DNA from: Eledone cirrhosa
Taxonomy: Eukaryota
DNA: 64,000 bases
Reading direction: 5' to 3'
Assembly: GCA_964016885.1 (NCBI GenBank)
Contig: OZ024742.1
Span: 120,280,001 to 120,344,000 of the forward strand
The notes under the pieces were generated by a model that saw only the letters and a program-made list of their open reading frames with translations, was not told the origin of the DNA and did no database searches. This document shows positions 4,518 to 64,000 of the stretch, one piece after another (the first letter of the stretch is position 1; each line of letters starts with the position of its first letter). The position numbers and the translations under genes were made by a program.

Positions 4518-7500
4518 CTAACCTTCTAGTATTGTTATTAAATAATTATTCTAGAACCTTCCTGCATCTCGCTCGCAAACTTTGTAACCACTTTGCTCCT
4601 TCTCTCATACCCCTCCACCCCCCTGATCGCAAGTATAAAATAAATCTTGCTGGCTCCCAACGACAGAATTTATCTATCAAACTATCTTACGGGCGATCTG
4701 TCAATTTTGAGAATGTAAGCAAAACCTGGCTTTTCTTTGTTTCCGTAGTCTCCTCAATTAAGCAGTGCTTTAAACTCTTATTTATACCACTCTAAAATTC
4801 AAATTCGCCGTTTTCCTCTCTGATTTTAAATTATTATTTTACGTGATGTTAATATGTTTCAATCTGTTGGACCCTTCCTAAAAACTAAACTTCTCCTAAA
4901 GTCACCCATTTCCCGCCCTCCCACCTTCACACACCACCATTGCTATATGGTCCAATCATAACTCAGCGGCTTTAGTAAGTTCTCTAACAAATCAGTATAG
5001 CAAAGCTACCACCCCGGTTACTACTCCTTAAGTTTAGACCTGTTTGATGGGTTGACTGCGGAAATTTGAAAAGTCTAAGCGCTCAATGACAATGTCACAG
5101 ATAAAGATAAATTCACCTCCCACTGCAGGACGAGAATACAAGGACCTCTCTTTATTTCAGACACAGATGACCAACAAAATCTCGTCTCCCACACCCCTCC
5201 CTGCCCCTCCAACCCATCCATCCGACCCTCCCAACTTCAGAGTTGGTACCATGAACGTAGGCACATTGAAAGGTCGCTCAAATGAGGTTGTAGAGATGCT
5301 TGAACGTAAAGAAGTTGATGTTTGTTGTATTCAAGAGACTAGGTGGAGAGGGGGTTCGCCAGATTCATCGTGGGTAAAAAACGATGCTATAAACTTTTCT
5401 GGGTGGGAAATGACAACGGACAGGGTGTTGTAGGAATTATGTTAGCTGAAAAATGGGTAGATAAGGTAATTGACGTAAATAGAGTGAATGACAGAATAAT
5501 TGAATTAAGGCTAGTTCTAAATAGAACTACTGTGACAATAATATATGCTTATGCCCCCCAATCTGGTCTACCTGATGTTATAAAGGACAGGTTCTATGAG
5601 ATGCTAATGCACACTACCTCCCAAATAACCGACAGTGACTACTTAATTATTGCTGGCGATCTAAACGGTCACATTGGACAACATAGTGATGGCTATGATG
5701 GAATCCATGGAGGCTATGGGGTTGGAAATAGAAATGAGGAGGGCTTCAGAATCCTGGAACTCTGTGACGCAAATAGCCTAACTATCTGTAACACAAACTT
5801 CACAAAACGTGAAAACCACTTGATCACCTATAAATCAGGGGAACACGCCAGCCAGATAGATTATATCCTTACTAAAAGACGGGACAAAATGTCTGTTGTA
5901 AACACTAAATCCCTCCCCCATGAAGAATGCACCTCCCAACATAGCCTAGTAGTTAGTGACCTCATAGTCAGGAATAGACGTACTTGAGAACAGAGGAGGC
6001 CTACCTTGAGGAGAAGAATATGGAAGTTGAAGGACCCCATAGCCAGTGACAAATTTAAAAGCTTATTACTTGATGCCTTTGACAATAAGGAAGAGCAATT
6101 AGAGACGTGCAATAAAGAGGAACAGTGCCAACTCTTGAAAGTGAACCTGCTGAAAGCAACAGATGAAATCTGTGGCTGGAACAGACCTATTGGCAGGAGG
6201 AGAGTAACTTGGTGGTGGAACAGTAAGGTGGAAGAGACAATCAAGGCCAAAAAGCAGGCTTGGAAAGTATGGCAGGATGGGGGAAGTAGAGAGCACTATC
6301 AAGTGGCCAGGAGAGAAGCTAGGAGACAAGTGTACCTTGCAAAAAGGGTAGCAGAGGATAGAAAGTTCAAGCATGTTCTACAACGTGAGGACCAAAAACG
6401 TGAGGTGTTCAGGATTGCTAGACAATGTGTTAAGGAAAACCGTGATATTGTCGGGGAGAAGTGTATATGTAATGATAATGGTGTACTTGCGCTCACTGAT
6501 ACTGATAAGAAGATAGCCTGGAAGTGTCACTACGAGAGACTATTAAATGAGGAGAATAAATGGGAAAAAGATAGTCTACCCCAAATCGATCCAATAGGAG
6601 GACCAGCGGTGCAAGTTAAAGGTAGTATAATAAGTAAGGCAATCAAAGATATGAAGACAGGCAAGGCAGCTGGGCCTTCGGAGATAGTTGCTGAGATGTT
6701 GAAGGCATCTGGTATGGTGGGACACACTATGGTCACCCGTATAGTTAACCAAGTAATACAGAATGGGGTCATACCAAAAGACTGGCGTAGCAGCAGCATC
6801 ATTAACTGCTACAAGGGTAAAGGGGATGCTCTAGAGGCATTAAGTTAGTTGACCAGGTCATGAAGGTCACAGAAAGAGTTATAGCGCAACTAATCAGAGA
6901 GCGAATTGATCTAGATGAAATGCAGTTTGGATTTGTGTCAGGTAAAAGTACCACAGATGCTCTTTTCCTTGTACAACAACTACAAGAGAAGTACCTAGCT
7001 AAAAGAAAACCCCTCTATTTAGCTTTTGTAGACCTGGCGAAAGCTTTTGACAGAGTCCCCTGCTCCATTATCTGGTGGGCTCTTAGAAGACTAGGTGTAG
7101 ATGAATGGCTTCTGAGAGCTATACAAGCTATGTATAATGAAACAGTCAGTAAGGTTAGAATTAAGAATGAATATTGTGAAGAATTTAGTGTAAAAGTTGG
7201 CCTTCATCAAGGCTCTGTCCTTAGCCCCCTCTTATTTATTATTGCCCTTCAGACTATAACAGAGGATTTCAAGACCGGCTACCCATGGGAACTCCTATAC
7301 GCAGATGATCTAACACTCATAGCTGAATCAATGGCTGAACTAGAGAAGAAATTCGAAACATGGAAGCATGGCCTAGAATCAAAAGGCCTTAAAGTTAACT
7401 TGTCCAAGACTAAAGTTCTAGTTTGTAGAAAGGAAAATAGGGCACAGGTGCCCTCAGGGAAATGGCCATGCTCAGTGTGTAGGAAAGGAATAGGCAGAAA

Positions 7501-8613
7501 TTCCATTTTATGTCCCAAATGCAAAGTATGGGTACATAAAAGATGTAGTGGGATCACAGGTAAACTATCTAAGAACGTAGACTTTATATGTGGCCAATGC
7601 TCAGGTGCAATAAGTAGCAAGTGTCCAAAGGATACTAGCTCCTTATGTTGCCCAGATGGTTCTATAGAAATAGTAGACACTTTCCGTTAGCTGGGTGACG
7701 AAATCAGCAGTGGTGGAGGGTGTTCTGAAAGTACAGTAGCCAGAGTCAGAACGGGATGGAAAAAGTTCAGAGAGCTTATACCGCTGTTGGGCCACAAAAG
7801 GTTTCTCTCTAAAAATAAAAGGCAGATTGTATGATGCCTGTATACGAACAGCAATGTTACATGGCAGTGAGACTTGGGCATTGTGTGCAGAGGATCTACG
7901 TAGACTGGAAAGGAACGAAGCATGCATGCTCCATTGGATGTGTAATAGTAATATACGTGAACGGCAAAGCATAAATGAACTAAGTGAGAAATTAGGAATA
8001 AGAGGGATCAGATGCTGTTTACTTGAGAGAAGACTACGTCGGTATGGTCACGCGATGCGCATGAAAGACGACAGCTGCATAAAAAGTGCCGGGCGATCAA
8101 AATTGATGGTAGTTACGGAGTAGGTAGACCCAGAAAAACCTGGGATGATCTGATAAATCCCGACCTCACACACTTACATCTCTCTGGATCGAGATCTTTG
8201 GCGCTACGCAGTAATACAGAAGACCCGCCTTGCCTATGTACAAAGCGAAACCCAGTCAGTAGGCACCTCTTAACCAAATATACACCCCAATCCACTACCC
8301 CTACCCTATCCTCCCACTCCCACCAACAGCACAAGAAAATGAGATCGAGATCGTGTAGGTGTCACGACAAAAAAACACACACAGTCCACGCTGTAATGTG
8401 GCCTGGTAGGTAACACGGTAAAAAGTTCCCAGTTCCACACTGTAAATGTGGTTGGTGTTAGGAAGGGCATCCAGCCATAGAAAACCTGCCAGATAGTCCT
8501 ATACAAGTGAGACACGGTCACCCGACCAGCCTTGCCTCAAGTGGGACAACTCCCGTCTAACCCATGCTAACGTGGAAAATGGACGTTAAACGAAGATGAT
8601 GATGATGATGATG
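4517..8613 (+). mobile_element. Near-full-length RTE-clade LINE (family A)
   Basis: About 570-bp 5' UTR after a (TA)n tract, one broken ORF, 3' UTR with ggttggtgttaggaagggcatccagc and a (GAT)n tail at ~8594-8613. No clear TSD; both ends lie in microsatellites. Confidence 0.95.
5086..8200 (+). pseudogene. RTE ORF (APE endonuclease + reverse transcriptase + PHD-like Cys module), disrupted
   Basis: APE motifs GTMNVGTL, CCIQETRW, YAPQ, GDLNGH, QIDYIL; RT motifs QFGF, FVDLAKAFD, GLHQGSVLSPLLF, YADD. Broken by frameshifts/stops (~5350, 5985, 7688, ~7790, ~8085) and a small deletion at ~6835. Confidence 0.95.
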
Positions 8614-8614
8614 A

Positions 8615-8672
8615 TACGTATGTGTGTGTGTGTATGTATGTGTATATAGAGAGAGATAGGGAGAGAGATGTG

Positions 8673-19299: not shown

Positions 19300-19721
19300 A
19301 CTATTATGTTCCCTCACGTTGTATTGTAATATCTACGCCAAAAATGGCGTAGATAGACAATTCAGATAAGATTCAAGGTCAAAAATTTCATTGAGTAAGA
19401 AAAAAGTTAGCTAAATTTATGTTTTCTTGTATGTATTTTTGTTTATAATAAATTGTGACTCCATCCAACAATCTATCTTTTCTTTTTTTTCCTTTTCAAA
19501 CTAAAAATGTCTCTTCATATTGAAAAGGTCCCATACCTTTGCCATATAGTAACAGGTAAATCAGTTTTACTTAACTTTTCATATGATTCTTTTCTTTTAA
19601 CCTATACATCCCATTAATCTTCATGTTTTGGTGTTCTAAGATTTTACATTCACGTATTGAAATGTATACATGGCACATCTAACTTGACCAGGAAATGAGA
19701 TGAAATTGTGACAATAAGTCA

Positions 19722-20303
19722 TTTACTGGTTACTGGGCTATAAGTTTGTATGTTGATTACTGTATGAATTCTTTTACTGGTTACTGGGCTATAAGTTTGT
19801 ATGTTGATTACTGCATGCATTCTTTTACTGGTTACTGGGTTTGTATGTTGATTACTGCATGAATTCTTTTACTGGTTACTGGGCTATAAGTTTGTATGTT
19901 GATTACTGCATGCATTCTTTTACTGGTTACTGGGTTTGTATGTTGATTACTGCATGAATTCTTTTACTGGTTACTGGGCTATAAGTTTGTATGTTGATTA
20001 CTGCATGCATTCTTTTACTGGTTACTGGGTTTGTATGTTGATTACTGCATGAATTCTTTTACTGGTTACTGGGCTATAAGTTTGTATGTTGATTACTGCA
20101 TGCATTCTTTTACTGGTTACTGGGTTTGTATGTTGATTACTGCATGAATTCTTTTACTGGTTACTGGGCTATAAGTTTGTATGTTGATTACTGCATGCAT
20201 TCTTTTACTGGTTACTGGGTTTGTATGTTGATTACTGCATGAATTATTTTACTGGTTACTGGGCTATAGGTTTGTATGTTGATTGGTGTATGAATTCTTT
20301 TAC
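19722..20303. repeat. Minisatellite of alternating 51- and 44-bp monomers (95-bp higher-order unit), ~12 monomers
   Basis: Monomer starts at 19771, 19822, 19866, 19917, 19961, 20012, 20056, 20107, 20151, 20202, 20246. Confidence 0.95.
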
Positions 20304-27675: not shown

Positions 27676-28454
27676 CATGCCGTTATATAGTGGTGGCAGC
27701 CTCCCATGCCGTACAATTATAGTGGTGGCAGCCTCTCATGCCGTACAATTATAGTGGTGGCAGCCTCCCATGCCATTATAGTGGTGGCAGCCTCCCATGC
27801 CGTACAATTATAGTGGTGGCAGCCTCCCATGCCGTACAATTATAGTGGTGGCAGCCTCTCATGCCGTTATAGAGGTGGCAGCCTCCCATGCCATTATAGT
27901 GGTGGCAGCCTCATATGCCATTATAGAGGTGGCAGCCTCCCATGCCATTATAGCGGTGGCAGCCTCATATGCCATTATAGAGGTGGCAGCCTCATATGCC
28001 ATTATAGCGGTGGCAGCCTCCCATGCCATTATAGTGGTGGCAGCCTCCCATGCCATTATAGTGGTGGCAGCCTCCCATGCCATTATAGAGGTGGCAGCCT
28101 CCCATGCCATTATAGTGGTGGCAGCCTCCCATGCCATTATAGTGGTGGCAGCCTCCCATGCCATTATAGTGGTGGCAGCCTCCCATGTCATTATAGTGGT
28201 GGCAGCCTCCCATGCCATTATAGAGGCGGCAGCCTCCCATGCCATTATAGTGGTGGCAGCCTCCCATGCCATTATAGCGGTGGCAGCCTCCCATGCCATT
28301 ATAGAGGTGGCAGCCTCCCATGCCATTATAGCGGTGGCAGCCTCCCATGCCATTATAGTGGTGGCAGCCTCCCATGCCATTATAGCGGTGGCAGCCTCCC
28401 ATGCCATTATAGAGGTGGCAGCCTCCCATGCCATTATAGAGGTGGCAGCCTCCC
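27676..28454. repeat. 27-bp GC-rich minisatellite, ~28 units
   Basis: Unit gccattatag(t/a/c)ggtggcagcctcccat; four 5' units carry a 5-nt insertion (32 bp). Confidence 0.95.
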
Positions 28455-28705
28455 AGCCCAGGTTTTGCTGCCCACCAGGCCAAACTGTTAAAGTATTGAC
28501 TGCTCTCTGATAGGTTTGTGGTAGAGCCTGTAGCAGTGGAGACTTCTGGTGTTCTTGGCCCTTGAACCACATCCCTGCTCATTACTATTGGATCAGAGTT
28601 GGCTTCCCACAGGTACGAGTCCCACAAGGTGTAGTCGTTATCCCAGCGTGTCTCCCTCACCATCCTCTGAAGGAATGTCTTCTTCATCCTGTCAGCCAAG
28701 ACCAC
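28455..28705 (+). mobile_element. CRE-like RLE retrotransposon 3' relic
   Basis: KY*LLSDRFVVEPVAVETSGVLGP*TTSLLITIGSEL...SQRVSLTIL*RNVFFILSA, matching the RLE end KY..P.AVET.G..G. Confidence 0.75.
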
Positions 28706-31390: not shown

Positions 31391-32202
31391 TTGTGTCAAT
31401 TTACATACTGAATGTTTATGTCCATTTAGTGTCAGTCCTATCTAGAGACCTTACAAAAGAAATGTTGCTTACTGAACAGATAATATAAGGAATAATAGTC
31501 TGGGAAATTTACAAGAAAGCATCATATGATCTAAAATGTATAAATCTATACCTATATCTAGATTTCGTTTGTGAGTATACAAACAGACATGATCAATAAT
31601 AGCTAATAAATATATTCAAAGTTATATCAACAGTAACTACCTATTCTGACAAACCAACGATAAAATAAAATTAGACGAAGATACTTAGTTATTTGAAAGC
31701 GTCATGTGCTTAAGAAAGAAAGCAAAAAAGAAAATGGCCAGATGGAAAATATAAATAAATAAAAAGAAAATAAAATCAGAGATAAACCAAATTAATATTG
31801 ATTCCATTAGATCAAGACCTCCCATTTTCATATTGGAATATAATTGTCATAGAGTAGTTGTAACATCTCAGCACGACAAGGTTAATTATACAGAGTAAAA
31901 AGGTAGCTATGAAATTAATGGGTTTATTTCCTATCACAAATGGCAATAGAAAGACACAAACCAGGAGTAAATAAAATACAATGGATTTTCCTTTAACTTT
32001 TTATTTTTAATCTATGACAAAAAGAATCTGTTACATACGTTAATTTGACAAATAATATGAAATATTGATCATCATCATCATCATCATCATCATCGTTTAA
32101 CGTCCATCTTCCACGCTAGCCATTAGCCATTAGTTAGTTTACAGACAGATTAAAATTTATTAAATTCTTTTTTTTTCTATTATCATATATATATATATAT
32201 AT

Positions 32203-32820
32203 ATACGTGAACGACAAAGCATAAATGAATTGAGAGAGAGACTGAGCATAAGAGGAATCAAATGCTGCGTGCAGGAGAGGCGGTTACGCTGGTATGGACA
32301 TGTGATGCGTATGAAGGATGACAGCTGCATAAAAAGGTGCAGAGCACTAGAAGTTGATGGAAACCGCGGAGTGGGGAGACCCAAGATGACTTGGGATGAG
32401 GTGATAAAAGCCGACCTTACCCAACTACACCTCTCAAAGTCAATGACACACGACCGTGACTTCTGGCGTCACGCAGTAATACAGGGTACCCGACCTCCCA
32501 TGGGTACATGCTGAAGCATATAAACAATATGCCCCCCCCCCCCCCCACCGCAAGGTGGTCGTGGAGGTGCCACGGCAAAAAAGCACCCAGCCCACACTGT
32601 AAAGTGGACGTGTAGGCGCCACGAAAAAGCACCCAGCACTCACTGTAAATGAGGTTGGTGTTAGGAAGGGCATCCAGCTGTAGAAATCAAGCCAGATCAG
32701 TTCCTGTATGAGCAAGGCATGGTCAGCCGACCAGACACTGCCCACAACAGGACAACCCGTCTAACCCATGCTAGCGTGGAAGAACGGACGTAAAACGGTG
32801 ATGATGATGATGATGATGAT
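32203..32820 (+). mobile_element. 5'-truncated RTE family A copy
   Basis: ORF 32230..32514 (RLRWYGHVMRM, GRPK.TWDEVI), 3' UTR and (GAT)n tail; an inverted tail stub lies at ~32068-32120. Confidence 0.9.
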
Positions 32821-43269: not shown

Positions 43270-44599
43270 TATATGTATATATTTACTATATAGCAGGTTG
43301 TGAAGGACTCAAAATTAATGTGGCTATCAAATCATGTGTAGATGTAGCAATGCAGTTGAGGGTAAGCCATTCAGCTAAAGATAACTGTTTAAAAGAAAGT
43401 CTAATCTGCCAGAAGTATATTCCACTGAATTCAGTCAATCAATGTAAAGATAGGGAGAATGGATGGCCACAAAAAAAAAAGTGCTGAGAATGCTAACATC
43501 AGAAAAGGAAATCTAGTTGATGGCCAACTGAAACTAGCCTCCAATGTACATTGTGAGGCTACATTATGTAAAATGAGAGGTTTAACAATTTTCCATGAAA
43601 TAAATATTAAACTAGTTTATTTTATATATAATTTAATTCTTTAAAATATTCTATTTGCAAATTTACCACAATTTCAATTTTTTGTATTATATTTACCTGT
43701 AAGGTTAATGACAAATTTTAATTAATTATATTAATGAGCCATTATTCATGTATTTATGTCTATGACTGTCTGAATTTATTTCATTTTGTAATTTTCTTCC
43801 AACACTAATTCCAGTATGAGGCATCCGTTTTACAGGTTCTCAAGTTTTATTGATAATCGAACAATGCACTCACTTCTCCTCTGCTATAATTAGGCAGTAT
43901 ACACAGTTGAATATTGGAATATAATTTGTTTTATATGATTATATTTAAATAAAAATTAAATAATTATACATTTATAGTAGTTTGGAGACAAAAATTATGC
44001 AATAGATATATTTAAAAATCTTTTGTTAAGTTGTGTTTCAAAAATCACATTCATATATCAATAATCAAAAAAGTTTTTTAGTTGTTTTATGAAACCAGTG
44101 TAAGTTCCTAACTATTTTAAAATTGAATTGAAATACCGTATATACTCGCATATAGGTCGCACTTTTTTAACGATAAATAAGTATACATTTTTGGGGTGCG
44201 ACCTATCAGATCGACATCAGACTGACCAATAATTTTTCCTAGACTTAATCAACGATATGTATTTATAAAAATAACTTTGTTAATATTTTTTATTATTTAA
44301 CATAATAATTTCATATATCTACCTACTTATACATATATTTCTTGATTTTAAATTTTTTACTAAAACTTTGTAGTGTTTACGTTTTTTTTCTATCTGACCG
44401 AACCATCCATCATTAAAATCCATAGAAATGCATACCTCGTATTTAAAATGTGATTTCATTGTCTTAGCGTTGCTATGAACACGTATTGTGATGTATTTAC
44501 TTTAACAGGAAACAGATTATTGCATGTGGCGTTTCTTTTCAAAATTAGCAAGTGAGAAAAGTTGATAGTTGAAATTTTTTTTATAATTCACCGAGAAAT

Positions 44600-44986
44600 A
44601 TGAATTCCAGTAAGAGAAAAAGTTATCAAACAGTTTTCAAGTTAAAGGTGGTTGGTTATGCAGAAGAATTTGGAAATAGATCAGCAGAAAGGGAGTTTGG
44701 AGTGTCAGAAAAGGTGGTGGAACAAAAAGACAAGCTGGGAGAAATGCCTAAATCAAAGAGAGCAGCAAGGTTTGGAGTATCACCATATCAAGATATTGAA
44801 AAAGAGCTAAATGATTGGGTTTTAGATATCAGGAAAAATGGACACATTGTTACAAGACTTTCTATAAGAACGAAAGCCCTTCAACTTATACCAAAGTACC
44901 ACTTATCCCAATTTAAATCGTCAGCAGGGTTGTGCACCAGGTTTATGAATAGGTTTGGACTGACTCTTCGCCAAAAGACAGTGTAA
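44600..44986 (+). pseudogene. Truncated pogo/POGK-type transposase (Brinker-like DBD + CENP-B-type HTH; DDE domain absent)
   Basis: RKSY..FKLKVV.YAE..GNRSAEREFGVSEK and IEKELNDWVL..RKNG..VTR..IR.KA...FKSS.G.CTRFMNRFGLTLRQKT. Confidence 0.85.
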
Positions 44987-46851: not shown

Positions 46852-49221
46852 CCCTTTAGTGTTCAAACCGCCCGAAAGCGCCCAAAATTATTTCCCCTTC
46901 ATTTGTTGAAAGCGCCCGAAAACACCTACACTAAAATATCATTCTAAAAATAAACAAACCATCATCAAAATCTCGTCAATTCGAGGCTACTGCGAGATTA
47001 GGCCTTTACCACGAAAATTAACACTTAATATAGTGAAACAAGTTAAAGCAACACGTGTTTTTTTAACTTTGAAAGTGCAACACATTTTTTTTGTATCAAC
47101 ATGGCTTCTGAAAGTAGAGATACCGACTTTGAAGGTTTTACACAAGACGACATTCAGATTGAACAAGAAACAAAAGATAATATTAGTGATATATCATCAA
47201 ATAAATCTGATGTTTATATTTCTGAAATTTCGTCCGACGAAGATTGTTATTTTGAAAGTGAAAGCGAAGCAGATCTCCAGGGCGCCATTGAAGATATTTC
47301 AGCAACATGGTCGAAAAATACCACACCAATACATGTTCCCGATTTTGTTGAAAATACTGGTCCACAGCATATATTACCTCCCGATGCTAAAGCACTGGAT
47401 TATTTCTTTTTGTTTTTGCCACAAACTTTCTTCGAAGTTGTGGCAAAAGAGACGAATCAATATGTCCAACAGCAGATTTCATATCAAAGAAAACTCGATC
47501 AGTTATGGCGACCTTCAGATGCTGCGGAGATGCAACCGTTTTTTACCATAAACATTATGTTTGGTATAAAACAATTTCCAAGACTGTGGAATTACTGGTT
47601 TAGCGACCCTTATATATCGAGTATTATGCCAAAAACAAGGTATTTGAAATTAAACCAATATTTGCATCTGGTTGATACTTCAAATGCCCCTGGTAGAAAT
47701 GATTTCAATTATGACCCTCTGTATAAAGTTCGACCAGTAATTAAAATGCTCTCGGAAAAATTTAAAACAGTGTATATACTTGGGAAAAAAACTTAGTGTT
47801 GATGAAGCTATGATTGGGTATAAGGGTAGGATTCATTTTAGACAATACATGCCAGCTAAACCCACTAAATGGGGCATCAAGGTGTGGGAACTCTGTGAAT
47901 CGGACACAGGCTACTGTGTAAACTTTGATGTTTACACAGGAAAGAAACACAACGGAGAGAGAAAATATGGCTTGGGGTACGATGTTGTGTGGTCTCTGAC
48001 TGAACCCTTTCACTCTCAACACATATTTTGATCGTTTTTTTTCTTCAGTGCGTCTAGCAGAGGATCTTGCCCTCGTAAATACGTACACCTGCGGTACAAT
48101 AGTGGGGAATCGCAAAGGGCTACCCCAAGAAATGAAAATCACAAAATTTAAAAATAGAGGGGACATTTTCCAATTGCAAAAAAGGAACTTGTTAGCCACA
48201 TTGTATAAAGACAAGTGGCAAATTTTGTTCCTATCGTCTAACCAAGAACCAGGAGTTGGGGCTGAAGGTAAATCTTTAGTCAACCTCTCCTATAATAAAT
48301 ATATGGGGGAGGGGGGGGGGGGGACAAATCCGACCAATATTGCGCCTACTACCCCGTTGGACGCTCTAGGAAGAAATGGTGGAGATATATCTTGTGGTTT
48401 TTAGTGAATTTAACCATTGTGAATTCTTTTATTGTATTCACTAAAAGCCACAAGAATCCGCCACCACCAAAGGACTACTGCCACATGAAATTTCGTGTAG
48501 ATGTTGCCTCTCAGCTACGTGGAGGATATTCTTCTCGTAAACACAAAGCTGGGAGAAAGTCGAAATTATCTGAGGTAAACACGGAAAATATTGATTTTCA
48601 CAAAGTGGAGAAAATTAATGGGAGGAAGAAGGTTTGCCGAATGTGCTCTTTGCAAAAGAGAAAAACTGTTAAAGGTTATGGAATTCAAACCATGTTTATG
48701 TGTTCATTTTGCAAAGTGCCATTATGTAAAGGCTGTTTTGGCCAATATCATGATAGAAATATTGTCTGACAATATTGAAAAAAATATTTTAAAAATATAT
48801 TGGAACACATTAGATATAAAAACACCTGCATTCACCTGTGTCACACCTGAATCACACCTGTTAATGAATCACACCTGTTATTGGGCACATTCTGTTATAT
48901 AAATCTACTCAGTACATTGTGTAAGAGTATATTGCCAATATTATTTTAACTGGTGAAAGAGTTTTATACATTTTTTTCAATGAAAATATTTGCATGAAAT
49001 GTAGAGACAGACTAAAACCGTGTACTGAGTATACCTGCATTTTAAATTAATTCACCTGTTCGGAAATGTGCTAAGATTGTTGGAAGTCAACATTTAGGTC
49101 ATTGTTGGATATTCTTTGTAACAAATCTAGCAGATAAAGTTTTAATTTTTGTGTTTATCCATAAAGTCATTACTTTTACACCTGTTAATTAATTTCACCT
49201 GCCCATAAAAGTCAAATTTAA

Positions 49222-56409: not shown

Positions 56410-59340
56410 TTAAAAAACAACAAAAAAGAGAAAACAAAGAAATTCCCACAAGAAATCTACTTGGCAAGAGAACATCAATCGCCAAATAAACCTTCTCCGA
56501 TCTGACAGAAATTTTAACAAACTACAAAGTAGGTGAACATGTTAAACAAACTAAACTTAGAAAATTGAAAAGAAAATACAGTATAAAATCAACAAGTGAC
56601 ATAGACATGCTGATAGAAATAATCAAGCAAAAAGTGTCGGCCAAAGCTGCTCGTATAAGGTGCTTTGAAAAACGATCTAGATTCTATAAGGACAATAATA
56701 TGTTCAAAAACAACCAAAGAAACTTCTACAGAAAAATTGGCAAGTCTACAATAACTGCTAAATCAATACCACCCAAGGAGGAAGTGCAAGAATTCTGGGA
56801 AAAGATCTGGGCCGAAGAAAAAGTTCATAATATACATGCCCCATGGATAGACAGACAAATGAAAGATACAGCTCACTTTGAGGAACAAATATGGGAAAAT
56901 ATAACAGTTGAACAGTTGCGTTTGGCTCTTAGAAAAATCAGCAAATGGAAATCCCCAGGAAAAGACAAAATACAAAATTTTTGGATAAATGCCTTCACAG
57001 AGTCTCGTGAGCTGTTAGCCCAACTTTACAATGAAATAGTTAAGGAGCCAGAAAAGATACCATCATGGCTAGTTAACAGCATTACATTCCTGCTTCCGAA
57101 GAATTATGAGACAAACAATCCCCAAAATACAGACCGATAACTTGCTTGACCACAATGTATAAAATTTTAACATCAGTCTGAATATACATATGACCACCTG
57201 ATAACAAATGATCTATTTCCCAATGAGCAGAAAGCGTATAAACGAGCCTCATATGACTGTAAGGATCAGCTTTTGGTTAACAAAATGATACTGGATATTG
57301 TCATAATAGACACAAAAATCTATCAATTGCTTGGATAGATTATAAAAAAGCATTCGATAGTTTGCCACACAGTTGGATTGAAAAATGTTTAGAGATTTTC
57401 AAAATATCTCCCGTTGTCAGGAGGTTCCTGTCATTCAGTATGAAGACATGGAAAACGACACTCCTTTTGAATAGTGAAAAAAAATCACTGGAAGCTGGAG
57501 AAGTTAATATTAATTGTAGAATTTTTCAGAGTGACTCTTTATCACCGCTTTTATTCTGCATCGCACTTATACCATTAAGTAAAATGCTCAATGAAACAAA
57601 ACATGGATATAAAGTCTATGACAAAACCATTAATCACTTGTTCTACATGGATGACCTGAAACTATTTGCAAAAAATGATGAACAATTGCAAGGGCTATTT
57701 TCCACTATGGAGCAGTTCAGTGATGACATTAAAATGGAGTTTGGACTAGATAAATGCGCCAAAGCAACGTTCACCAGAGGAAAGCTGCTGAAAAGTTCAG
57801 ACATTAATCTTGATCGGGGGAATGTGATAAGAGAACTTGATCAAGAGGAAACTTACAGATATCTAGGTGTTTGTGAAGGAGACGGAATTAAGCACTCAAC
57901 AATGAGGGAAAGGATAAGGAAGGAATGTTACCGCAGAGTGAGAGCAATCTTAAGAACGGAATTGAATGCAAGGAATAGGATCGATGCCATAAACACGCTT
58001 GCCATACCAGTAGTAACCTACAGTTACAATGTCATCAACTGGTCAAGCACAGAGATCCGTAGGCTCGATACAAAAATTAGAAAATTCTTAACCATGTACA
58101 GAATGCATCACCCTAAGGCAGATACAGATAGAATATATCTCCCTAGGAAAGAAGGAGGACGTGGGTTAATCCAGTTAGATATTGCGTTGAAAACTGCAAC
58201 AATTGGATTATCTACATATCTAAGGGAATCACATGATTGGATGATCAAACTCGTTATGAGACATGAAAGCATCAAAAGATCATACTCCATTACAAAAGAT
58301 GCACAAAGATACAGTAATGGACTACAAATTTCAGAAGTCCCATTTACTGCTGAAATGGAAAACACAGAAAAAGCAAAGCAGGTAAAAGTAATTGCAAAGA
58401 AAGAACTGCTACAGAAACTGGCTAAGAAATGGCAAGAAAAGCCTCTGTATGGAAAATACCCAGAAAGAGCTAACAATCCTGATGTTGACAAAACTTTAAC
58501 CCATCAGTGGTTGGCATCCTCTGGACTGAAATCGGAGACTGAAGGACTGATTATATCAGCACAAGATCAGTGTCTGCCAACAAAAAATTACCAAGCCAAC
58601 ATAATAAAAAAAATGGATGCAACCCATTATGCCGTGTATGTAAAAAACAACCAGAGACCATTGATCATATAATTTCAATGTACAGTCCTATAGCTCCAAC
58701 CGAATACCTAAACAGGCATGACAGAGCTGCACAATACATACATTGGATAATGTGTAAGCATTTTGACCTGCCCCATCAAAAGAATTGGTGGGAGCATCAA
58801 CTACCTCCCATACTTGAAAAAGATCACATCTCAATCTTGTGGAACTTTAGCATCCAAACACCGAAAAATAGATGCAAATAGACCTGATATAATATTGAAG
58901 GACTTTAAAACGAGGGTATTCCTGCTAATTGATATGTCCGTTCGAATAGACAAGAATGTATCTATAAAAACATTTGAAAAATTGAGCAAGTATAAGGACC
59001 TGGAGATAGAAATTGGAAAAATGTGGAAATTGAGAACTAAAACAATACCAGTGGTTGTAGGTGCTCTGGGAATTATACCTAAGGGGTCTAATGATTACTT
59101 ATCGCAAATTCCAGTAAACCCGCGTATAGGAGAAATACAAAAGATAGTACTAATGGGAACTGCCCATATACTAAGGAAGATTCTGTCAATATAAGTACAT
59201 CACAAGTCTAAACACTAAAGATGCATGTGTGAGTATGTATGTTCTTTCTTGAACATGGCGGACCTTGTTGTCTCTTGAGGTCACTGGTTGTGACTTGGTG
59301 ATAACTCGTATGAACATAAAGCAAGATAAATGCAACTGTA
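56410..59340 (+). mobile_element. 5'-truncated R4/Dong-clade non-LTR retrotransposon (RT + CCHC knuckle + RLE)
   Basis: WKSPGKD, IDYKKAFDS, IFQ.DSLSPLLF, HLFYMDDLKL, EGGRGL, CRVC...ETIDHIIS, RHD, RPDII, KLSKYKDL, IPVVVGALG; TSD ataataacaat at 56399-56409 and 59341-59351. Confidence 0.93.
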
Positions 59341-62589: not shown

Positions 62590-64000
62590 ATCATCATCAT
62601 CATCATCATCATCATCAACGTTTAACGTCCGTGTTCCACGCTTGCATGGGTTTGGACGGGGGTAGTCCCACTTGAGGCAAGAGTGATTGTCTTGCTCGCA
62701 TAGGACTGTCTGGCAGGTTTTCTACAGTTGGATGCCCTTCCTAACACCAACCACATTTACAGTGTGGGTCTGGGAGGTTTTTACCGTGTTGCCTACACGG
62801 CCACATTACAGCGTGGACTGTGTGTTTTTTTGTCGTGACACCTACACGATCTCACTTGTTTCGGCCTGGATGGCGCGGCACCAACATAACTTTACATAGA
62901 ACGGGGTGGTGTGGATGGGGTGGGGGTGGTGGCGGGACGGGGTGTATTTTGCTAGAGATGCCTACTGGCAAGGCGGGTCTTCTCTGTTACTGAGTACCGC
63001 CAAAGGTCTCGGTCCAGTGACATTGTCCTGGAGAGGTGCAAGTGTGTGAGGTCGGAGTTTATCAGCTCATCCCATGTTTTTCTAGGTCTGCCTATTCCAT
63101 GGCTACCGTCTATCTTTATTGCCCTGCACTTTGTTATGCAGCTATCGACTTTCATGCGCATCACGTGTCCATACCAACGCAGCCTTCCCTCGAGCAAACA
63201 ACACCCGATCCCTCTTATCTCCAATTTTTTCCTTAGTTCGTTTATGCCCCGCCGCTCACGCATATTACCGCTACACATCCAGCGGAGCACGCAAGCCCCG
63301 CCCCTCTCCAGTCCGCGCACACCCTCTGCACACAATGCCCAGGTCCCACTACCATGCAACATCGCTGTTCGTATGCAGGCATCGTACAACCTGCCTTTCA
63401 TTTTTAGGGAGAACCCTTTAGCAGCTAATAGTGGTATAAGCTCTCTGAACTTTTTCCAACCAGTTCTGACTCTAGCTACAGTACTTTCAGAGCACCCTCC
63501 CCCACCGCTGATTTTATCGCCCAGGTAACGGAAGCTGTCCACTATTTCTATAGAACCCTCTGCGCAATTGAAAGAGCTAGTATTCTGTGGGCACCCGCTG
63601 CCACTTATTGCACCAGAACACCGGCCACACGCAAAGTCTATGCTCCCAGTTAGCTTACCTGTGATCCCACTACATCCCCTATGCACCCATACCTCGCATT
63701 TAGGACACAAGATGGAGCCCCCACCCACGCCTTTCCTACATACCGAGCACGACCATTTCCCAGAAGGGACCGCCGCCTTGTTTTCCCCCCTACAAACTAG
63801 AACTTTGGTCTTAGCCAGGTTAACCTTAAGTCCTTTTGACTCTAGGCCGTGCCTCCCATGTTTGGAACCTCCCCTCCAGCTCGGTCATTGATTCCGCCAT
63901 GAGCGTCAGGCCGTCTGCGCACAGGAGCCCCCATGGGCAGCCTGTCCTGAACTCCTCTGTTATAGCCTGAAGGGCAATAATAAATAGTAGGGGGCTGAGA
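62590..64000 (-). mobile_element. RTE family A copy with clustered A>G hypermutation (runs off window end)
   Basis: ORF 62952..63728 is colinear with 7490-8200; 3' UTR and (GAT)n tail at ~62590; Lys/Glu/Asn/Arg/Ser codons converted to Gly/Arg. Confidence 0.95.

Follow-up and report, generated by a model that had tools for sequence, protein, structure and literature searches.

Clustered A-to-G changes in a genomic LINE copy of Eledone cirrhosa, likely written on RNA by ADAR before reverse transcription

Introduction

Near the end of a 64,000-nt stretch of the Eledone cirrhosa genome assembly GCA_964016885.1 (contig OZ024742.1, positions 120,280,001 to 120,344,000; this whole stretch is referred to as the window), one copy of a long interspersed nuclear element (LINE) carries dense A>G changes on one strand. 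The initial annotation of the window took them for the mark of a LINE RNA that had been hyper-edited by ADAR, reverse transcribed, and fixed in the genome. Which process wrote these changes, and on which molecule, is the question that the locus raises.

A>G hypermutation fixed in DNA is already known for exogenous retroviral proviruses. ADAR-type cases have been described in the proviral DNA of Rous-associated virus, avian leukosis virus, and HTLV-2/STLV-3 and in the 3' LTR of BLV (PMC12925331, PMC8025556). For LINEs, a review calls the mutational role of ADAR undetermined (PMC4982230), and the literature searched, which covered few subscription papers and excluded supplements, contained no description of genomic LINE copies edited by ADAR.

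Results

The focal LINE copy and its family

The focal copy totals 2.07 kb, of which 664 nt lie past the window end, up to the equivalent of position 64664 (G000:C3:120344664). A LINE at 63160..63960 had been recognized correctly in the initial annotation, which overlooked this extension and the existence of copies with T>C changes (i.e., changes on the opposite strand). The features of the window that are relevant here, with A>G changes referred to as edits, are as follows.

62590..64000, minus strand: in-window part of the focal LINE copy, 5' truncated, from a family encoding an APE endonuclease and a reverse transcriptase (RT)
62590..62616, minus strand: (GAT)9 tail, the usual 3' end of the family, read from the sequence
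62617..63187, minus strand: end of the open reading frame (ORF) and 3' UTR, with four edits only (63039, 63028, 62952, and 62855)
63188..63363, minus strand: dense A>G patch 2, with 24 edits, taking in GSETW>GSGTW
63218..63353, minus strand: 136-nt stretch with 19 edits, found as identical contigs in sequencing runs X1 and X2
63364..63584, minus strand: almost edit-free gap, with a single edit at 63506
63585..63947, minus strand: dense A>G patch 1, with 39 edits, taking in YADD>CADG and a PHD-like segment
63855..63857, minus strand: 1-base insertion within a G run, causing a frameshift and private to the focal copy in the alignments
7220..8615, plus strand: sister copy from an older subfamily (77% identity), a segment of a longer broken copy that starts near 5340
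32201..32820, plus strand: third copy, an older 3' fragment that keeps A at 10 of the 12 edited sites it covers

The endonuclease and RT ORF, the 5' truncation, and the simple-repeat (GAT)n tail identify the family as an APE-type non-LTR retrotransposon (i.e., a LINE). It may belong to the RTE clade, a label that comes from the initial annotation and from its motifs. Exo_endo_phos, RVT_1, and PHD domains were detected in the 1,033-aa frame of a natural sister copy, L033, which served as the coordinate reference. The PHD-finger-like segment (PF00628, above the cutoff) follows the RT domain and precedes the C-terminal part of the single long ORF of the family (L033:3861-6959, plus strand, residues 769-812; window about 63600-63740), and the combination of RT and PHD is present in about half of the members of the Atlas clusters.

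No target-site duplication was found at the focal insertion when its junctions were compared with an inverted paralog of the empty site, and the same comparison suggests that a few bases were deleted there. The paralog is located 1 kb past the 5' junction (L031:4670-4815; window equivalent about 65670-65815).

The family has many copies, some of them very young. One 29-nt motif matched 18,314 genomic places with no more than 2 mismatches, and the 29 closest copies fetched differed from their own majority at 105 of 56,455 sites. An old 430-nt fragment of the family also occurs as near-identical copies at several places (L122-L125 and L130, on G000:C18 and C28); these are likely segmental duplications or a passenger inside another repeat.

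Other repeats occupy the rest of the window. Tandem-repeat arrays were found at 27676-28455, which yields long open repeated-unit frames in several frames, and at 19716-20303. Broken frames at 44573-44983 and 47047-48766 resemble, by eye, transposases of the pogo/Tc1 and piggyBac types, respectively. An unrelated second LINE-type RT remnant lies on the plus strand at 56490-59191, with a 463-aa open stretch at 57281-58669.

A dense, one-strand burst of A>G changes

The signal was first noticed by comparing positions 63241-63420 (minus strand) with the sister copy in the window, and the reported counts were reproduced: A>G at 22 of 63 sites, G>A at 0 of 46, T>C at 7 of 44, C>T at 1 of 27, and 4 transversions. 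Because this sister belongs to an older subfamily, part of those changes represents subfamily divergence; 19 A>G changes survived in the same interval when it was compared with the 29 young sisters. Over the whole focal element (2,065 sites), comparison with these near-identical sisters gave 80 A>G changes at 648 A sites and 11 changes of all other kinds, among them only 1 or 2 T>C changes and a single G>A change. At 79 of the 80 edited sites, G was never present among the 29 sisters, and at the remaining site it occurred in 1 of 29. Among the sisters themselves, A>G accounted for 13 of the 105 differences. The other changes of the focal copy dropped to 8 (three at CpG) when its nearest sisters were used, which indicates a young insertion.

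The edits were strongly clustered. The share of A sites that were edited was 39 of 141 for the upper patch and 24 of 66 for the lower one, with 1 of 61 in the gap that separates them; beyond the patches, it was 12 of 206 on the 5' side and 4 of 175 on the 3' side. The variance of edits per 100 nt was 20.9, versus an expected 3.5, and was matched by none of 5,000 random draws. Edits fell at all codon positions, and 45 of the 60 altered codons were nonsynonymous. Conserved motifs were broken, with YADD now reading CADG and GSETW now reading GSGTW. The direction, one-strandedness, and patchiness of the burst all agree with the first description. The third copy (about 32200), described there as keeping the A state, does so at 10 of the 12 edited sites it covers and carries G at 2.

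Two other sources of biased change were rejected. GC-biased conversion was rejected because the focal copy shows no rise in T>C, A>C, or T>G. An APOBEC-edited retroelement would show clusters of sense G>A changes; the focal copy has one G>A change, and none of the 19 matches to a matched G>A control motif was hypermutated.

The edited copy is unique and present in sequencing runs

A search of 3.0 Gb for an edited 30-mer from the focal copy, with up to 1 mismatch allowed, gave a single match, so the focal copy does not derive from a G-rich subfamily. The best other copies among 40 scored of 4,530 candidates were 93% alike, and no multicopy G-rich subfamily, which had been named beforehand as the contrary case, was found. 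The edited stretch of L108, the most heavily changed of the further copies described below, was likewise single in the assembly (40 scored of 1,104 candidates).

The main alternative raised at the outset was an assembly artefact, in which hyper-edited RNA-seq reads used in polishing or scaffolding replaced the true DNA letters. Runs X1 and X2 bear on this point. Both contained a 136-nt contig that matches 63218-63353 letter for letter, including its 19 edits, at depths of 6.7 and 8.9, respectively, and the unique 5' flank had depths of 5.5 and 9.5, whereas the words of the family sum to about 1e5. Each of the two runs, which share one sample, comprises about 1.4 Gb of contigs. No record gives their library type, and DNA was deduced from the depth. 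These depths and the size of the contig sets are DNA-like. In addition, the edits stay in one phase across 1.7 kb in the focal copy and 2.3 kb in L108, well past short-read length; older edited copies (L111, L145, and L055) bear ordinary decay on top of their edits; and no host exon was recognized by eye in the window. The unrecorded library type speaks for the artefact, as does the patchy cover. The 136-nt contig was missing from run X3 (such contig sets drop rare variants), the densest edited stretch of the focal copy was covered in no run, and run X6 covered parts of the family, yet neither the flank nor the edited patches. No RNA run was listed for the focal stretch, nor was any edited family transcript observed. 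The case against an artefact is strong, not final; we regard this explanation as very unlikely, and the edited focal letters are probably real DNA.

For L108, run X2 contained a 328-nt contig that spans 49 edits and has 2 differing letters; the greater part of the copy had no cover. The depth of this contig (34, at L108:4260-4587) is about 4 times that of the unique flank of the focal copy in X2, even though the assembly contains this stretch only once. RAD-seq reads from two other individuals (X23 and X24) were of the family type only when compared with L108, at one cut site, with none through the edited part; such reduced-representation data are uninformative about the L108 edits. We infer that edited copies have passed through the germline.

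Edited copies recur on both strands

Motif searches among the approximately 18,300 family copies revealed nine more independently changed copies. Seven carry A>G changes on the sense strand, and two are fragments with T>C changes.

L108, sense: 266 A>G changes of 824 A, 4 other changes
L058, sense: 68 A>G changes, 14 other changes
L055, sense: 67 A>G changes, 47 other changes
L145, sense: 53 A>G changes, 63 other changes
L111, sense: 44 A>G changes, 42 other changes
L054, sense: 27 A>G changes, 10 other changes
L057, sense: 17 A>G changes, 26 other changes (weak, yet counted)
L109, tail-less fragment: 70 T>C changes, 6 other changes
L110, tail-less fragment: 61 T>C changes, 7 other changes

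All seven further A>G copies have 3' tails, with up to 266 edits each, and in all of them A>G outnumbers G>A (from 1.9-fold to over 60-fold). The focal copy and L108 are dense and nearly pure in A>G on one strand (80 versus 11 and 266 versus 4 changes, respectively). These two copies share 39 edits, with 41 private to the focal copy and 154 private to L108; the sharing of hot sites but not of whole edit sets indicates independent editing events. Since some A>G copies are young and others are overlain by ordinary decay, the process recurs over time. One candidate, L041/L150 (A>G 24, G>A 10, T>C 10), was dropped as ambiguous. In L054 (L148:2148-3042), a tandem duplication of about 110 nt was observed in the 3' UTR, the halves of which seem by eye to bear different G changes; if they do differ, the duplication would predate editing and would already have been in the RNA.

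Both T>C fragments were found with a T>C motif that had been intended as a control. They are young internal pieces of 595 and 694 nt that lack the 3' UTR and tail, and T was changed to C at 70 of 138 and 61 of 158 sites, respectively. Both sit in AT-rich microsatellites, as do many normal copies. A second T>C motif had 25 matches, of which only these two fragments were hypermutated, and a third one, located further 5', had none. All of the A>G copies (8 of 8) but none of the T>C copies (0 of 2) extend to the 3' end; this contrast is suggestive only, because 19 of 81 unedited alignments also lacked the 3' end and only two T>C copies are available. The microsatellite polarity of the flanks was not informative about the template strand of the T>C copies (among 28 tailed copies, the 3' flanks were G-rich in 11, C-rich in 14, and equal in 3).

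With the first motif, 3 clear A>G copies and 2 T>C copies were obtained against 18,314 family copies. If the sensitivity of the motif is about a third, as we estimate, edited copies would make up very roughly 1 in 1,000. A second A>G motif matches a subfamily variant (175 matches, 100 of them listed and 31 examined).

Neighbor context and a host ADAR2-like gene

The edits of the seven A>G copies that were pooled depended on the neighboring bases. By 5' neighbor, the edit rate was 0.36 for T, 0.31 for A, 0.13 for C, and 0.08 for G; by 3' neighbor, it was 0.34 for G, 0.21 for A, 0.17 for T, and 0.16 for C. The best triplet was TAG (83 of 170) and the worst was GAC (3 of 115). A 5' G was strongly depleted (odds ratio [OR], 0.23; p about 1e-22) and a 3' G was enriched (OR, 2.2; 235 of 557 edits versus 701 of 2,427 sites). 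L108 supplies nearly half of the pooled sites; with the search motifs masked and both L108 and the focal copy excluded, the ORs were 0.27 for a 5' G (p = 1e-7) and 2.4 for a 3' G. For comparison, in 102 alignments without editing, the ORs of ordinary A>G changes were 0.70 (5' G) and 0.52 (3' G). On the antisense strand, the T>C copies have the same context (5' G, 5 of 38; 5' T, 69 of 103). The ADAR-type context expected from the first reading of the locus therefore emerges when the copies are pooled, whereas in the focal copy alone it is weak: a 5' G preceded 11 edits at 148 sites, versus 69 at 499 for the other bases (OR, 0.50; p = 0.046), this depletion had a p value of 0.1 after the motifs were masked, and the 3' G effect was not significant.

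Upstream G depletion is a mark common to ADAR editing (PMC5625713). The downstream preference for G in the LINE copies differs from that described in the same source for bulk invertebrate hyper-editing, octopus included, in which A is preferred and G is low (20 to 25%).

The host genome encodes a candidate enzyme. Exons of an ADAR2-like deaminase were detected on G000:C6 with the CHAE and PCGD motifs (E = 1e-100 versus human ADAR2), by which the gene appears catalytically intact. Its base-flipping loop is the same as that of human ADAR2, with the serine loop kept, and the 3' G preference would fit this loop. Further multiexon adenosine-deaminase genes (PF02137) are located on G000:C1 and C25 (L133-L136).

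These observations also bear on a polymerase origin, in which bursts of G were placed opposite T, either through unbalanced dNTP pools in reverse transcription or in synthesis of the second strand, or by a repair polymerase prone to errors. Polymerase eta prefers WA sites, which the bursts resemble, and runs of A turn into runs of G. However, the purity of the changes (266 A>G versus 4 other changes in L108), the 3' G preference, the mirror-image context on the antisense strand, the shared hot sites, and the sparing of the 3' end fit a deaminase of duplex RNA better, and the control showed no bursts of G>A. Of all the explanations weighed here, we give this one the least credence.

Discussion

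The A>G burst was very probably written on LINE RNA by ADAR before reverse transcription and was fixed in the chromosome by the retrotransposition machinery of the family itself. This reading builds on the changes and their direction, the single-copy status of the focal element, the nine more independently changed copies, the pooled neighbor pattern, and the presence of an ADAR2-like gene.

We envisage the following course. Transcripts of the family, which has about 18,300 copies that are often close together in both orientations, would pair with antisense family RNA into long duplexes. Of 98 loci fetched, 19 contained family copies in both orientations. The element itself contains no inverted repeat longer than 18 nt, and local folding did not predict the edits (rho, -0.12), so that intramolecular folding leaves the patches unexplained. 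The editing span of 2.3 kb in L108 and the antisense-edited copies point to long sense/antisense duplexes of family RNA; together with the two-orientation loci, such copies suggest that the duplexes may be intermolecular or arise by read-through. ADAR would deaminate both strands, and inosine would then be copied as G. Sense RNAs with a nearly unedited 3' end would insert normally and yield the tailed A>G copies. In nearly all copies, the edits thin out in the last approximately 370 nt (18 of 732 A sites past reference position 6960, with seven copies pooled), as may be expected if insertion needs a 3' end that is intact or covered by protein. Edited antisense strands would be captured now and then as tail-less internal fragments, which are read as T>C. 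A functional RT could not have been translated from the edited RNA, so the protein would have come from another RNA or have been made prior to editing.

The best rival for the T>C copies is deamination at the DNA level, by ADAR or another adenine deaminase acting either on first-strand cDNA in an RNA:cDNA hybrid, which would account for the T>C copies, or within an R-loop on the completed copy. The occurrence of both A>G and T>C polarities agrees with it, and editing of the DNA strand by ADAR in retroviral hybrids has been raised as a possibility, with reference to in vitro editing of hybrid DNA (PMC12925331). However, cDNA editing is unable to yield eight sense A>G copies, and if editing took place after insertion, tails should be equally frequent in T>C and A>G copies, whereas they were seen in 0 of 2 and 8 of 8, respectively (p = 0.028, from a table of 7 versus 2). 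Moreover, the change of 39 to 51% of T along 600 to 700 nt would be hard to keep against hypoxanthine repair. We judge DNA-level deamination improbable, if less so than the artefact and polymerase explanations, and retain editing of the RNA duplex as the preferred account.

The LINE copies resemble the retroviral proviruses in having clustered, one-strand A>G changes that are ascribed to ADAR acting on RNA, fixed in DNA by reverse transcription, and rare among copies. The described retroviral cases concern exogenous LTR viruses in infected cells and, for the most part, short stretches of LTR or inverted repeat (about 70 bp in BLV) (PMC12925331, PMC8025556). The LINE, in contrast, is endogenous and of the non-LTR type, and its changes, seen in a genome assembly, span 0.6 to 2.3 kb, stem from repeated independent events of different ages, and occur on both strands.

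A second parallel is with APOBEC-edited endogenous retroelements, in which a deaminase also leaves a heritable, strand-biased, and context-specific scar in single copies with wrecked ORFs (PMC4866542, PMC2873906). APOBEC produces G>A through C-to-U changes on the cDNA of LTR elements in vertebrates, whereas the LINE changes are A>G and the enzyme would have acted on RNA. LINEs were outside the screen described there, for which invertebrates served as a negative control. Transcriptome hyper-editing of repeat double-stranded RNA (dsRNA) is similar in its repeat clusters, its upstream G depletion, and its use of LINE 3' fragments as substrates, such as those of chicken CR1 and lizard Penelope (PMC5625713); that editing is seen in RNA, whereas the LINE changes stand in genomic sequence. 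The comparison with APOBEC holds in kind, as the initial annotation had proposed in speaking of a heritable mutator, but not in scale, since edited copies are rare and their germline passage is presumed.

In human cells, ADAR1 and ADAR2 reportedly restrict L1 in a largely editing-independent manner. ADAR1 was found to restrict L1 without editing, and the experiments described with ectopic human L1 RNA showed no edits (PMC5224506). ADAR thus meets LINE RNA in that system without edits being found in it, whereas editing-type changes are fixed in insertions here.

The net effect is best explained as an irreversible scar that few insertions receive and not as bulk mutation. A real role in defense is not supported, because only very roughly 1 in 1,000 copies is edited, each of these is nonfunctional from the moment of insertion, and truncation already inactivates most insertions. 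With moderate confidence, we propose a broader view in which ADAR acts repeatedly in the germline as a mutator of a LINE family that is still active, and both strands of the duplex are written back by the LINE machinery, sense RNAs as tailed A>G copies and antisense RNAs as tail-less T>C copies.

The edited copies provide direct genomic traces of the insertion of edited LINE RNA, and the frequency, families, ages, and strand of edited insertions become countable from assemblies alone. They offer a route by which RNA edits turn heritable and single-molecule snapshots of the preference of germline ADAR. If the broader view is true, edited antisense duplex fragments would serve as a trans-substrate for retrotransposition, and the genome would hold a datable fossil record of germline dsRNA and of ADAR specificity.
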